Positions 5,430-50,283 of a stretch of 64,000 nucleotides of DNA are shown piece after piece. The first letter of the stretch is position 1. Every line of letters starts with the position of its first letter. The notes under the pieces were generated by a model. That model saw only the letters and a list, made by a program, of their open reading frames with translations. It was not told the origin of the DNA and did no database searches. A program made the position numbers and the translations under genes. The DNA is taken from the NCBI RefSeq assembly GCF_055900595.2, contig NZ_CM148325.1, one strand, 5' to 3'.

Positions 5430-5976
5430 TATGTATTCCCTTGTGATTATAATCTTCATGAATATATCAATAAGTGCCGTTATCCAAAAAAAAGCACATT
5501 TGGATACTATTCTATGAAGTTCATTTTATTTTAAGGATTACATGTAACAAATGTATTTAAAAGATTTCAAAATGTTTCTAATCTATTTAATATAATTCGG
5601 GATTATGAATTCTGAATATAAACATTCATGAATATTATAAATGCATATCAATAAGTTATGAGTTGAGCAGAAAGATAGGGGGTATCAATGATTGTTGCGC
5701 TAAACACCTGGTGTGATCACGCGCACATTAATGAAGGAATAAAAAAAGCCGGCATCATGCCGGCCCCAAAAATATAAACAAGACGATAAAAGGCTAATAA
5801 CGTAAGCATCATGACACAGAATAATAAAAAGGTATAATTGTAATCAGTGCTAATATATTGATTAAATGAATTAATAAAGCCGATATCAAAGATAAATAAA
5901 ATCGCTCAAAACGATTTTTCCTGTATTCACTGCCGTTGCGCAAAAATTATCTATTTGTTCAAAAAATGAGTGAGTC

Positions 5977-14053: not shown

Positions 14054-14332
14054 TTACCAGGATGATTCTCAAAACAGCACAAATAATCAAAGATGATTTT
14101 TTCGGGAGCGATCCCGTTGACGCCAGAGCCACCAAGGGGTGACGCACGTCACATTTCTATTCATAAGTAGCGTTAATCATTCATATCGCGAATATTTTCT
14201 TGTCAGCGAAAAAAATTGCGGATAAGGTGATGAACACATCAGATTTCCTGGTGTAACGAATTTTTTAAGTGCTTCTTGCTTAAGCAAGTTTCATCCCGAC
14301 CCCCTCAGGGTCGGGATTTTTTTATTGTGCAT

Positions 14333-29330: not shown

Positions 29331-29390
29331 CGTTGTTATTAAATCTAGTTTGTTGTTATTAAATCTAGTTCGTTGTTATTAAATCTGGTT
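29331..29390. repeat. Three tandem copies of a 20-bp unit (YGTTGTTATTAAATCTRGTT)
   Basis: Direct head-to-tail copies at 29331-29350, 29351-29370 and 29371-29390, differing at one or two positions each. Confidence 0.9.
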
Positions 29391-30019
29391 TATACGTTAA
29401 GATGCAACTACAGCAGAAATTGCCACTGTTAATTTTTTCATCGTGAGCCCTTTTATTTGAACTATTATTTAAAAATGATGTCACTGCACTATAAATATTC
29501 ATCCAATCAATGAGATTATTTCAAGATGTAAGTTTTAGTTTCTCATTTAAATTGTGAAGTAGATCCCTATCTTTATCTGAACTGTTTCTATTGCACACAA
29601 TGCATGACTATTTTGTGAACGAATATAAATTTGGTAGTCAAATTATATTAAAGGTTGTTATTTATGATTGACTCATAATTTATTTATTTAATTTAAATAG
29701 CCTAGAAATAACCATGGAAATTATTTGCATGATGTTTGTTTGGATTTATTAATGTAATTGAGGTGGTTTTATTTAATACGCAATATAGCGCCGCTTGATA
29801 TTAGTTCTATTTTTTTTGCGTAAGATAGATGAGACAAACAGAGACGCATAATGGTTTGCAAGGCTCTAATACTTTGATGTTGAGGATGTGATGGGGCATG
29901 TACGGGGCATAGTACAATGATGTCCATGCTGGTGTAGATAATCTCCAGGCTTATCCGGTGCGCCGTAAAACCCCGTCCTTCAGGGCAGGGATATAAGGCG
30001 CGGTTTTCCACCTGACCAG

Positions 30020-30443
30020 GTGTTTGCTGTTGTTCAATGTATTGGCGGATGACGGATATTGGCGCACCTCCGCAGCTACTGGCAAAATAGCCAGCACTCC
30101 ACAAAACGCCTTTGTAGTAATACCTGACTGCAATATCTGGTCGATCTCGTCGCAGTCACCTACCCGATACGCCTTTGAGGCTGTTTACCAGACTGGATAT
30201 CGCCAGTTTGGGAGGATAGTTAATTAACAAATGGACGTGATCTGGTTCGCCATCCATTTCAACCAGTTCAGCTTCAAAATCAGCGCATACATTTGAAAAG
30301 TAAGCGCGTAGTTTTTCTGTCGCGTCATGGTCAAAAATCTGACGTCGGTATCTGGTGACAAAGACCAGGTGAACATGCATCAGGAAAACACAATGCCTTC
30401 CACGCCGGATATCGGTTTCTTTTTTCACAGACCAAAGTATCAT
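30020..30443 (-). pseudogene. tnpA: IS200/IS605 TnpA (HuH Y1 transposase) interrupted by an in-frame TGA after codon 95
   Basis: N-terminal 95 aa carry the HuH motif (HVHLVF); TGA at 30156-30158; the same frame continues ...YYYKGVLWSAGYFASSCGGAPISVIRQYIEQQ (conserved TnpA C-terminus). Confidence 0.75.
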
Positions 30444-30450
30444 TTGGCCT

Positions 30451-31659
30451 GTGAAACGACTACAGGCATTTAAATTCCAGTTAAGACCAGGTGATCAACA
30501 GGAGTGTGAAATGAGGCGCTTCGCAGGCGCATGTCGTTTCGTTTTCAATCGTGCTCTGGCGCTTCAGAATGAGAATCATGAGGCCGGTAATAAATACATC
30601 CCTTACGGGAAAATGGCTTCCTGGCTGGTTGAGTGGAAAAATGCCACTGAAACGCAATGGCTTAAAGATTCTCCCTCACAGCCATTGCAACAGTCACTGA
30701 AAGACCTTGAGCGGGCTTACAAAAACTTCTTCCGGAAGCGGGCTGCTTTTCCCCGATTCAAAAAGCGGGGACAGAATGATGCATTCCGCTACCCGCAGGG
30801 CGTTAAGCTCGATCAGGAAAACAGCCGTATTTTTCTGCCGAAACTGGGCTGGATGCGTTACCGCAATAGCCGTCAGGTCACGGGTGTTGTGAAAAATGTC
30901 ACTGTCAGCCAGTCCTGCGGTAAGTGGTACATCAGTATTCAGACAGAAAGTGAAGTATCCACTCCGGTTCACCCTTCAGCATCAATGGTCGGGCTGGATG
31001 CTGGCGTGGCTAAACTCGCCACGCTGTCAGATGGCACAGTCTTTGAGCCTGTAAACAGTTTTCAGAAAAACCAGAAGACGCTGGCGAGACTTCAGCGACA
31101 GTTAAGCCGCAAGGTCAAATTCAGCAACAACTGGCAGAAGCAGAAACGCAAAATACAGCGACTGCATTCCCGTATCGCAAATATCCGCAGGGACTACCTT
31201 CACAAAGTCACAACGACCGTCAGCAAAAACCACGCAATGATAGTCATTGAGGATTTGAAGGTCAGCAACATGTCAAAGTCAGCAGCGGGTACGGTCAGCC
31301 AGCCGGGGCGCAATGTCCGGGCAAAATCAGGTTTAAACCGTTCGATACTGGATCAGGGCTGGTATGAAATGCGCCGCCAGCTTGAGTACAAGCAGCTCTG
31401 GCGTGGCGGTCAGGTGCTTGCTGTTCCGCCAGCGTACACAAGCCAGCGTTGCGCGTGCTGTGGTCATACAGCGAAAGAAAATCGCCTGTCACAAAGTCAA
31501 TTCAGATGCCAGGTATGTGGATATACAGCGAACGCCGATGTAAACGGCGCTCGTAACATTTTAGCGGCGGGGCACGCCGTTCTTGCCTGTGGAGAGATGG
31601 TGCAGTCAGGCCGCCCGTTGAAGCAGGAACCCACCGAAATGATTCAGGCGACAGCCTGA
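30451..31659 (+). CDS. tnpB: TnpB (IS605 OrfB) RuvC-like RNA-guided endonuclease, apparently intact
   Basis: 402-aa ORF with RuvC-I (GLDAG), RuvC-II (IVIEDLKV), zinc finger (CACCGH...CQVCG) and RuvC-III ([10 protein letters not shown]). GTG start at 30451; an ATG at 30511 is the alternative. Confidence 0.85.
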
Positions 31660-31698
31660 ACGTAGCAGGGATCCTCGTCCTTCAGGGCGTGGAGGATG

Positions 31699-32370
31699 TC
31701 AACAAACAGGTTGAATTAACTCCGCGCCCTGGTTTTTGACATTACCTACCGCGCGCGATACCGGGTGCCAGGTGAACTGGTTTGCTGGCACACAGCCGTT
31801 GGTAGCAATTTCTGATGCTTCTTTACCGCCAATCTCTTGCCGCATCCATTCCCGCGCAGCTTCTGGCGACAGTACCAGCGGGCGGCGGTCATGAATATCT
31901 ACCAGACCCTGGTCTGCTGCTGCAGTGACAATTAAAAATCCTTCGGCTTCGTCACCGCGCTCAAACGGTGTGCTACCTATCGCGGCCATAAAAACAGGTT
32001 GTCCGTCAGCACGATAGATAAAATAAGGCTGTTTTTTGTCGCCTTCTTTTTTCCACTCAAACCAGCCATCGGCAAAACAGATTGCCCGACCATGTTGCCA
32101 GAGCGGTTTAAACATACGACTGGTGGCCGCAGTTTCTACGCGGGCGTTAATCAGCGGCGGTTTATCCCACCATCCGGGAGCATATCCCCAGAAAACCGGA
32201 TCCAGATGAAGGTGTTCATCACGTTCACTGAGCAGAAGAACTTTGGTTCCCGGCGCGACGTTGTATCTGCCAATGGGTTCGGGATCATAGGGAATATCGC
32301 GTTCAATATCTTCCGCGAGAAGCGCAAGGTAATCTTCACGCGTTTGGGATTGGGCAAAGCGTCCACACAT
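31699..32370 (-). CDS. yedK: SOS-response-associated peptidase (SRAP) YedK
   Basis: Start trimmed to MCGRFAQ (catalytic Cys2). Confidence 0.85.
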   Translation of the reverse strand: MCGRFAQSQTREDYLALLAEDIERDIPYDPEPIGRYNVAPGTKVLLLSERDEHLHLDPVFWGYAPGWWDKPPLINARVETAATSRMFKPLWQHGRAICFADGWFEWKKEGDKKQPYFIYRADGQPVFMAAIGSTPFERGDEAEGFLIVTAAADQGLVDIHDRRPLVLSPEAAREWMRQEIGGKEASEIATNGCVPANQFTWHPVSRAVGNVKNQGAELIQPVC

Positions 32371-36902: not shown

Positions 36903-38315
36903 TCAGGAATTACTCATTGCAGTAAATTGTTGGCTGAGATAGGTACTGGTGTTATTCAGTTTGCTCATCATGGTATCTAATTGCGTAAACTGTGCAGTGT
37001 AACGCGCCACGGTGTCATCAATGCTGGCACTGACGGATAGATACTGTTTGGTCAGTTTTTTCAGTGTGGCGTTAATACTGTCCTGTGCGCTATCAATAAT
37101 GCCATCATCGGCAAGGTAACCTTTTACCTCGGTGGCAATTTTGGTGGTAATTCCTGTTTCTTTACCATCGCCTACCAGCAATTCACGTACGGATGCTGTA
37201 TTTTCATTCAGGACTTTTTTGAGTTTATCATCATCAATTTTCAGCTTACCCGTCGTGCCGTCCTGCTTAATCCCGATCTCGTTTAATGTTTTGAAGGCAC
37301 CGTCGCTGGCACCGTTTGCAAATTGTGCGCGGATGCCGCTTTGAATTGTACGTACAACGCTGTCTCCGAGAAGTGCACCATTATTTTTATCTTGTGCTTC
37401 AGCACCTGGGTCTACTTCTTTATATTTTGTCAGGGTGTTAAAGGTGTCAATGAGGGAGTTATATGAATCCACCCAGCCTTTAATTGCTTCGGTTGCTTTA
37501 TCGTTGCTTTTTGTCACCGTGACCCGGACGTCAGTGACTTTTTTGGTCAAATCGAGAGTCACTCCCTGAGGAGCATCGGTAATTTTGTTACTTGAACGTT
37601 CAATATCGATACCGTTAACGTTTAGCTGTGCATTTTGCGCGTTAACCAGTTCCTTCATATTCCCGGTGTTGGTCTTGCTGTCATAAGCCAGCAGATCATT
37701 TAATTTACTGTCACCCTCAACAGATATGGTCATTTTATTGGCCAGACCTTCACTGGCGGTCAATACCAATTGATAGTTACCATCTTTGACTTTAACGATA
37801 CTAGCGGAAATTCCACTATCGGCATCGTTAATGGCTTTGCTGATCTCATCCAATGACGTCTGATCTTTATTGAGCTTGATTTCCAGCGGCTCTTTACGAC
37901 CGTCTTGGGTAATTTTTATTGTGCGTGTATCTGATGACTCATCACCCAGTGCATCTTTTGTTGATGCAATGATTGTCGGGGAATCAGTTCGTAAAGATTG
38001 CGCCTGCGCCAGTTGGGTTACGCTGATGGTATAGATACCGGGAGCAGCACCTGCTTCGGTGGAAACTTTAAGGTCTTCATTGCTACTGGTAACGGTAGTG
38101 CTTTTGAACAGATCGGCTTTATTTAACGCAGTATTTGCAGTCTGGAATTTTTCTAATGCACTTTTTAATGTGCCATAGGCTGTCAGACGTGCGGTATTGT
38201 CACTCTGTTGCTGAGTAATTGGGTTTAAGCGTTTTTTTTCAGCGATGGTCAGGTTGTTTAGCAATGTATCCAGCGGCAGATTCGAACCAACGCCAAGAGA
38301 TGTAAATGAAGCCAT
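36903..38315 (-). CDS. fliD: Flagellar filament cap protein FliD
   Basis: Start trimmed to MASFTSLGVGSNLPL (residue 27 of the track ORF). Confidence 0.88.
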   Translation of the reverse strand: MASFTSLGVGSNLPLDTLLNNLTIAEKKRLNPITQQQSDNTARLTAYGTLKSALEKFQTANTALNKADLFKSTTVTSSNEDLKVSTEAGAAPGIYTISVTQLAQAQSLRTDSPTIIASTKDALGDESSDTRTIKITQDGRKEPLEIKLNKDQTSLDEISKAINDADSGISASIVKVKDGNYQLVLTASEGLANKMTISVEGDSKLNDLLAYDSKTNTGNMKELVNAQNAQLNVNGIDIERSSNKITDAPQGVTLDLTKKVTDVRVTVTKSNDKATEAIKGWVDSYNSLIDTFNTLTKYKEVDPGAEAQDKNNGALLGDSVVRTIQSGIRAQFANGASDGAFKTLNEIGIKQDGTTGKLKIDDDKLKKVLNENTASVRELLVGDGKETGITTKIATEVKGYLADDGIIDSAQDSINATLKKLTKQYLSVSASIDDTVARYTAQFTQLDTMMSKLNNTSTYLSQQFTAMSNS

Positions 38316-38473
38316 ACCTAATTCCTTTTGATTGCAAACAGTAGATAAGCGGGTTATCGGCAATTTGTGCGCAAAGTTTAATAGTTGATTCACGAAGATG
38401 ATGCGCAGAGTAGAGTTGTATATTACGGATATTTCAGCCGTTAAGAAAAAACAGGAGAGAAACTAAAATTTTC

Positions 38474-49980: not shown

Positions 49981-50056
<76 letters not shown>

Positions 50057-50110
50057 GTTTAAAAGACATCGGCCTCAAGCGGATGTCTGGCTGAAAGGCC
50101 TGAAGAATTT

Positions 50111-50184
50111 GGCGCGTTAACAAAGCGGTTATGTAGCGGATTGCAAATCCGTCTAGTCCGGTTCGACTCCGGAACGCGCCTCCA
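50111..50184 (+). tRNA. cysT: tRNA-Cys (anticodon GCA)
   Basis: 74-nt GGCGCGTTAACAAAGCGG...GGTTCGACTCCGGAACGCGCCTCCA. Confidence 0.93.
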
Positions 50185-50196
50185 CTTTCTTCCCGA

Positions 50197-50283
50197 GCCC
50201 GGATGGTGGAATCGGTAGACACAAGGGATTTAAAATCCCTCGGCGTTCGCGCTGTGCGGGTTCAAGTCCCGCTCCGGGTACCA
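50197..50283 (+). tRNA. leuZ: tRNA-Leu (anticodon TAA), long variable arm
   Basis: 87-nt GCCCGGATGGTGGAATCGGTAGACAC...GGTTCAAGTCCCGCTCCGGGTACCA. Confidence 0.93.

Follow-up and report, generated by a model that had tools for sequence, protein, structure and literature searches.

An IS609 copy at the yedK locus of Escherichia coli with a nonsense tnpA allele and a constrained tnpB gene

The 64,000-nucleotide stretch of contig NZ_CM148325.1 (assembly GCF_055900595.2) analysed here, referred to below as the window, carries at the 3' end of yedK a chromosomal copy of the insertion sequence (IS) IS609, a member of the IS200/IS605 family. This copy is very probably decaying in its transposition functions and does not move by its own transposase, while its tnpB gene is intact and constrained and is predicted to encode a nuclease that cuts the empty yedK allele. 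The RefSeq and K-12 annotations already include the element and its name, record tnpA as a pseudogene and describe TnpB as RNA-guided, and an intact tnpB with a lost or broken tnpA is common in the family; the yedK locus represents nothing new in kind. The value of the locus lies in a clean description of the copy (its TTAT target and precise ends, the guide predicted for it, and the yedK stop codon rebuilt by the insertion) and in the population picture that accompanies it.

Identity, boundaries and insertion site

Using the K-12 IS609 annotation together with the empty site, the ends of the element could be set at window positions 29955-31702 (1748 bp), replacing the limits of 29940-31700 in the original prediction, which had been made from the letters of the window alone. 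Over the 1748 bp it shares 98.17 % identity with the K-12 element, with no indels and 32 point differences, and the name IS609 is taken from the K-12 annotation feature 'insertion sequence:IS609'. The copy in K-12 MG1655 is located between ydcL and ydcO, and comprises the pseudogene yncK and insQ, annotated as 'putative RNA-guided DNA endonuclease InsQ'. An identical locus in RefSeq is annotated with a tnpA pseudogene ('internal stop; incomplete… missing C-terminus'), followed by an 'RNA-guided endonuclease InsQ/TnpB family protein' and yedK. Annotation has thus moved beyond the bare 'transposase' label that the original prediction expected for copies of this kind. No second IS609 copy was found elsewhere in the window.

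Megablast comparison of window positions 29900-31750 against 5426 complete E. coli genomes gave matches in 5393/5426 genomes, with a median of two places per genome, and a single place covering at least 80 % of the query in 4309 genomes. When five copies, taken from three E. coli loci (yedK, ydcL-ydcO and the rplI side), were aligned, similarity was found to start after TTAT and to stop at …GGAGGATGTCAA, and the window element is therefore delimited at the two positions given above. All right ends examined finish with GGAGGATGTCAA, while TTAT adjoins the left end in 7/8 independent insertions, the exception being TTACC. The empty site was sought by joining the two flanks of the element into one query, which was counted only when matched as one unbroken piece. 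The exact empty yedK site (…GGCTTAT/CAAACAGG…, the slash marking the point of insertion) occurs in 456/5426 complete E. coli genomes. In two empty-site sequences (L009 and L010) the junction was read directly as …CCAGGCTTAT/CAAACAGG…, also given as …CCAGGCTTAT/CAAACAGGTTGAATTAAC…, against …TTAT/element/CAAAC… at the filled site, with nothing duplicated. The uninterrupted empty junctions thus indicate precise insertion 3' of TTAT without target duplication, which is a signature of the IS200/IS605 family. Likewise in keeping with this family are the Y1 HUH transposase gene (disrupted), the tetranucleotide target without duplication or terminal inverted repeats, and the subterminal hairpins. The identity, boundaries and target site of the element are directly established by these comparisons, and IS609 would have entered as single-stranded DNA 3' of the TTAT at the yedK stop codon.

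The tnpA pseudogene and the tnpB nuclease gene

The tnpA open reading frame (ORF) runs on the minus strand, divergent from tnpB, from 30443 down to 30156, where it meets the TGA after 95 codons. Beyond the TGA the same frame goes on through …WSAGYFASSCGGAPISVIRQYIEQQ, including …LWSAGYFASSCGGAPISVIRQYIEQQ…. With codon 96 masked, the product aligns to the Y1 transposase structures of Sulfolobus, IS608 and ISDra2 (E 4e-20 to 7e-16), and with Leu restored at this codon it scores 145 bits against the NCBIfam model transpos_IS200 (NF033573; cutoff 55), while its homologues carry Pfam PF01797. The HUH motif comprises H69/H71 in DHVHLLI, aligned to H64/H66 of IS608, and lies intact upstream of the stop. 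The motif HVHLVF (residues 23-28), taken for the HUH motif in the original prediction, is instead aligned with beta strand 1 of IS608 TnpA (K18-W23). As had been anticipated, the catalytic Tyr is C-terminal; both Y135 and the metal ligand Q139 (IS608 Y127/Q131) are encoded downstream of the TGA. Codon 96 is Leu in 14/14 aligned relatives, the E. coli proteins of the yedK locus included, with TTA at the DNA level versus TGA in the window. Furthermore, the natural tnpA stop is gone in all E. coli copies. Where the TnpA proteins of relatives end in …QQQTPG/S/D/I*, the E. coli copies continue with …TPGQVENRALYP… through the left end (LE) into the local flank. At the position of the natural stop a Klebsiella relative has TAG and the window CAG, and the frame in the window is open to 29769. 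The 'intact' E. coli TnpA proteins are therefore 160-224 amino acids (aa) long, with locus-specific tails encoded via the LE hairpin.

The nonsense codon and its frequency could be directly established from complete E. coli genomes. Exact matches to the 41-mer carrying TGA number 3370, spread over 2726 genomes with K-12 MG1655 among them, and those to the 41-mer carrying TTA number 4481, in 2532 genomes. The disruption of tnpA at 30156-30158, as originally proposed, thus represents a real allele. Counts per locus were obtained with composite queries that join a locus-specific junction to the TGA or TTA allele. At the yedK locus the TGA allele is present in 819 genomes and the TTA allele in 221, while the TGA allele is present at the ydcL locus (ydcL-ydcO) in 1694 genomes; the Leu (TTA) allele is also present at both loci in other strains. 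In NZ_AP018802.1, one TGA copy and three TTA copies reside in a single genome. The occurrence of one nonsense allele at two loci suggests that the copies undergo gene conversion, or else that one bearing TGA has been moved in trans. Recoding of the TGA as selenocysteine was considered, given the nearby yedE/yedF selenium genes, but is disfavoured, as the codon specifies Leu in every relative and as loci that have TGA in some genomes have TTA in others; no search for a selenocysteine insertion sequence element was run. A third conserved IS609 site, at the rplI/DUF2686-gene locus (L003), shows the opposite state to the yedK copy: its tnpA is open (204 aa; a cluster of 2552 members), whereas its tnpB has lost 11 bp close to the 5' end and is annotated with a product of 348 aa.

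The tnpB gene encodes a full-length product. Pfam domains HTH_OrfB_IS605 (PF12323; 1.7e-13), OrfB_IS605 (PF01385; 1.6e-34) and Cas12f1-like_TNB (PF07282; 5.9e-24) were identified in TnpB, which scores 391.8 bits against NCBIfam guided_TnpB (NF040570; cutoff 100) and 310 bits against the narrower IS200_TnpB (NF038281), under its cutoff of 425. Residues 3-376 align to ISDra2 TnpB (E 7.8e-55). In this alignment the RuvC triad D183/E267/D363 corresponds to D191/E278/D361, and the zinc cysteines C334/C337/C353/C356 to C331/C334/C351/C354. Profile searches and alignment thus agree with the original reading of the gene as a TnpB with RuvC motifs and a zinc finger, and the proposed D-E-D triad is directly observed. 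A nuclease-dead derivative resembling TldR was considered and ruled out, all three RuvC catalytic residues being present. The window TnpB is identical to the representative of a cluster with 21,309 member sequences, and among its 120 best matches most are 402-aa E. coli proteins, many of them named 'RNA-guided endonuclease InsQ/TnpB family protein'. Two changes, G15D and K350Q, are private to it in the five-copy comparison, and neither falls on a residue known to be catalytic. In a nuclease screen an IS609-type TnpB was purified and the listed test target begins with TTAT, and SfaTnpB was singled out as the most active of nine candidates (PMC12781874). A literature search for studies of E. coli chromosomal IS609 copies returned none, this nuclease screen being the only relevant match.

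The two genes differ in the selection acting on them. When chromosomal copies of E. coli are compared with one another, the ratio of nonsynonymous to synonymous substitution rates (dN/dS) for tnpB is 0.16-0.28 (binomial p 4e-5 to 9e-3), and comparison with plasmid copies from other genera gives 0.06-0.17. Pooled over five E. coli copies, tnpB differences comprise 22 nonsynonymous and 24 synonymous changes, and tnpA differences 15 and 4, respectively (Fisher p = 0.028). The ratio of 15:4 is close to that expected with no selection, as judged from the approximately three quarters of nonsynonymous sites in tnpB rather than from the sites of tnpA itself. The tnpB gene is under purifying selection and, with all catalytic residues kept, the nuclease gene is preserved, as had been suggested for it.

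Element ends, predicted guide RNA and competing explanations

Both ends of the element fold as hairpins, and the hairpin core CGTCCTTCAGGGCG is found near each of them. In the LE stem the window copy has A at 29987 where other copies (K-12 and L006 compared) have G, resulting in a C·A mismatch. In the right end (RE) stem it has T at 31675 where K-12 and L006, another copy from the yedK locus, have A, resulting in a T·T mismatch with 31690; the RE DNA hairpin has a folding energy of -6.1 kcal/mol in the window copy versus -9.3 in these two. Decay of transposition would have involved the change of Leu96 to TGA upstream of the catalytic Tyr, loss of the natural tnpA stop, and a stem mismatch in both of the hairpins recognised by TnpA. 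Given the nonsense tnpA, the lost natural stop and the mismatched end hairpins, the copy should therefore not move by its own transposase. The earlier suggestion that the element is probably immobile holds in cis, as TnpA is truncated before Y135, while it does not extend to movement in trans. We infer that the window copy cannot move on its own and that TTA sister copies in the same genome could supply TnpA.

In the TnpB family, the target-adjacent motif (TAM) lies next to the LE, and the guide is taken from the flank next to the RE. By homology with ISDra2, TnpB would bind an omegaRNA composed of the RE and the 3' part of the tnpB transcript, for which the flank CAAACAGGTTGAATTAAC… would serve as guide. 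When the final 220 nt of seven copies were folded to a consensus, 61 pairs resulted, of which four show compensatory double changes, and the single-sequence fold of the window 3' region has z = -3.0. This structured region is consistent with a putative omegaRNA scaffold of approximately 165 nt ending at 31702. Matches below the Rfam thresholds were to RAGATH-18 (E 0.14), HgcC (0.28) and sot0042 (0.48), the latter two falling in the omegaRNA/3' tnpB region; sot RNAs have been reported from the 3' ends of tnpB genes of IS1341 type (PMC4615843). The TnpB/omegaRNA complex would cut DNA that carries TTAT followed by CAAACAGGTTGAATTAAC, that is, the empty yedK allele, as in the retention mechanism of the family. 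When the window was searched for TTAT followed by the first sixteen guide bases, the only match was the RE junction, with TCAA in place of TTAT, and no other self-target was found. The element's own junction would escape cutting because TCAA replaces TTAT. We infer, rather than observe, the expression, omegaRNA ends, nuclease activity and target of this copy.

Among the competing explanations, that of a sequencing or assembly error leaving tnpA intact has next to no probability, because the exact TGA 41-mer recurs in 2726 complete genomes, and RefSeq also records the 'internal stop'. It is unlikely, although not strikingly so, that the element is still mobile, either through TnpA supplied in trans by TTA sister copies or through low-level read-through of its own UGA-C. 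The UGA-C context terminates weakly in E. coli, and the TGA of tnpA is indeed followed by C. Both alleles occur within single genomes such as NZ_AP018802.1, the LE and RE are otherwise complete, and the TGA allele is found at two loci, as expected from trans mobilisation or sequence exchange. Gene conversion, however, explains this allele sharing equally well, the window copy has stem mismatches in both hairpins, and thousands of genomes carry their insertions at a small, shared set of loci, which suggests that there has been little recent movement. The excess of nonsynonymous changes in tnpA given above extends to the 'intact' alleles and, with the natural stop lost in all E. coli copies, functional TnpA may therefore be rare in this species.

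Several observations weigh against a working TnpB in the window copy. The terminal omegaRNA/RE stem has a U·U mismatch that is found in none of the six other copies and that could weaken the omegaRNA, and no Rfam family was matched at gathering score in the omegaRNA region. The GTG start of tnpB lies 7 bp from the tnpA start, while plasmid copies start with ATG. A scan for sigma-70 promoters gave no plus-strand site for tnpB or the omegaRNA, and a single minus-strand match within chance expectation; with the lone match no above chance, the scan says nothing on the promoters of tnpB and the omegaRNA. Moreover, the selection estimates within E. coli draw on a few dozen substitutions among five sequences, and gene conversion between copies could blur these estimates. 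The mismatch, the start codon, the lack of a plus-strand promoter-like site and the two private TnpB changes would all fit an inert relic in which TnpB, too, is unexpressed or without a working omegaRNA. Such a relic is nevertheless improbable, given the full-length tnpB ORF with every catalytic and zinc-binding residue kept, the identity of its product with the most abundant E. coli allele and a dN/dS well under 1 between chromosomal copies; the L003 tnpB, with its 11-bp deletion, illustrates a truly decayed copy. Recruitment of tnpB by the host, or its action as an allele drive, whereby it cuts the incoming empty yedK allele or regulates yedK by an antisense guide, is most improbable. In its favour, the species contains both occupied and empty yedK alleles, the predicted guide lies antisense to the final codons of yedK, and constraint is seen on tnpB but not on tnpA. 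However, this TnpB retains its nuclease residues and has the architecture usual for a transposon-borne TnpB, and in this it differs from the exapted, nuclease-dead TldR proteins (PMC10705468). Intact tnpB genes with lost or broken tnpA are also found in plasmid copies, which fits the known role of TnpB in selfish retention, as described in passages of the same paper.

A decaying transposon with a constrained and predicted active TnpB thus remains the preferred explanation for the yedK copy. A broader proposal would be that, in the fixed chromosomal IS609 copies of E. coli, TnpB and its omegaRNA work without a transposase, for example as an allele drive destroying incoming empty-site DNA during recombination, and that the loss or attenuation of TnpA would be favoured as it stops excision-triggered self-cutting. 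This is very unlikely, but two observations are compatible with it: tnpB is selected while tnpA drifts, and the UGA-C nonsense allele is present at two loci and in thousands of genomes. The coexistence of occupied and empty yedK alleles, together with constraint on tnpB but not on tnpA, makes the locus a convenient natural system for the study of TnpB-driven transposon retention in a native host.

Genomic context and comparison with known systems

The features of the locus are listed in Table 1. The insertion rebuilt the end of yedK (31699-31704), which reads …QPV* at empty sites and …QPVC* in the window, with the TGA stop lying inside the RE. The gene neighbourhood, with fliE, emrE, ybcL and ybcM to the left of the element and yedK, yedF and yedE to its right, identifies the window as E. 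coli. Left of the IS the window has an AT-rich (33 % G+C) non-coding stretch of 915 bp. Empty-site strains carry an OmpC-type porin gene between ybcM and yedK (L010, 1412-2646), and in the window approximately 50 bp (29348-29400) replaces approximately 1.2 kb that includes this gene. Elsewhere in the window, Rfam matches above gathering score comprise the DsrA and RseX small RNAs and three tRNA genes (14233-14319, 5741-5830, 49981-50280), which is ordinary for this E. coli region. The fliD gene (36903-38316, minus strand) is a single open frame of 470 codons in the window and is annotated as frameshifted in strain E308. As the IS609 region of E308 is 100 % identical to that of the window and fliD is frameshifted only in E308, the two sequences differ elsewhere. 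When the window and E308 were compared directly over 50 kb, an indel placed the sequences out of register and the comparison was uninformative.

Table 1. Features of the IS609 copy and its flanks (window positions)
Feature	Position	Strand	Basis
TTAT target tetranucleotide, putative TAM of the TnpB/omegaRNA complex	29951..29954	+	Empty site; 7/8 insertions; target in PMC12781874
LE, with subterminal imperfect hairpin at 29971-29990	29955..30017	+	K-12 annotation, empty site, fold
tnpA pseudogene, Y1 HUH transposase	30018..30443	-	Alignments to homologues and structures; RefSeq
In-frame TGA at codon 96 (TTA Leu in intact relatives), next base C	30156..30158	-	Sequence and allele comparison
tnpB (insQ type), 402 aa, GTG start	30451..31659	+	ORF, Pfam/NCBIfam, ISDra2 alignment
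Putative omegaRNA scaffold, overlapping the tnpB 3' end and RE; 5' limit approximate	31537..31702	+	Consensus fold
RE, with hairpin at 31673-31692 and terminal TCAA at 31699-31702	31660..31702	+	Copy alignment, fold
yedK (SRAP peptidase), last codon and stop rebuilt by the insertion	31699..32370	-	Annotation, empty-site comparison
Flanking sequence predicted as omegaRNA guide template, CAAACAGGTTGAATTAACTC; lies at the 3' end of yedK (opposite strand)	31703..31722	+	Predicted from its place directly 3' of RE

The closest known relative is IS609 of K-12, with which the window copy shares its length of 1748 bp, the divergent tnpA and tnpB, the preceding TTAT and terminal TCAA, the TGA at codon 96 and a 402-aa TnpB. 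They differ in site, ydcL-ydcO rather than yedK, and in the private hairpin changes of the window copy at 29987 and 31675, while the K-12 copy has changes of its own in the LE hairpin (at the equivalent of 29975) and in TnpB (C336Y, between two zinc-binding cysteines). Similarly, IS609-type elements of approximately 1.33 kb with the order LE-tnpB-RE (L012-L015), located on conjugative plasmids of Escherichia albertii, Salmonella and Klebsiella, have the same LE, RE and TTAT target and encode a 402-aa TnpB. In these elements, however, tnpA is deleted and tnpB has an ATG start with an upstream region of its own, whereas the window copy keeps a tnpA pseudogene. The plasmid TnpB proteins are separated from that of the window by dN values of 0.02-0.04 (E. 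albertii, Salmonella) and approximately 0.10 (Klebsiella). Five plasmid copies from these three taxa share the same ends, four of them inserted after TTAT and one after TTACC. Of these five plasmid relatives, tnpA is absent from four; in the fifth (L011), from Klebsiella, the element is full-length and tnpA is frameshifted. E. coli plasmids also carry isolated fragments of 140 nt that resemble the RE/omegaRNA (H110, H111).

ISDra2 of Deinococcus radiodurans (TnpB structures 8EXA, 8H1J and 8BF8) has the same D-E-D triad and CxxC…CxxC zinc finger, but its TnpB has only distant sequence similarity to that of the window, the window tnpA is divergent, and activity of the window copy is predicted. 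The target of ISDra2 is TTGAT, as opposed to TTAT for the window IS609. IS608/IS605 of Helicobacter pylori (TnpA structures 2A6M, 2VJV and others) has in common the Y1 HUH fold, a tetranucleotide target without duplication, the TCAA end and subterminal hairpins, while tnpA is a pseudogene in the window copy. The target of IS608 is TTAC. Finally, TldR proteins are said, in the study that deals with them, to have lost RuvC catalysis and to sit outside transposon ends. The window TnpB resembles TldR, as presented in parts of PMC10705468, in being derived from TnpB and in having no working transposase partner, but differs from it in that it keeps D183/E267/D363 and lies between a complete LE and RE.

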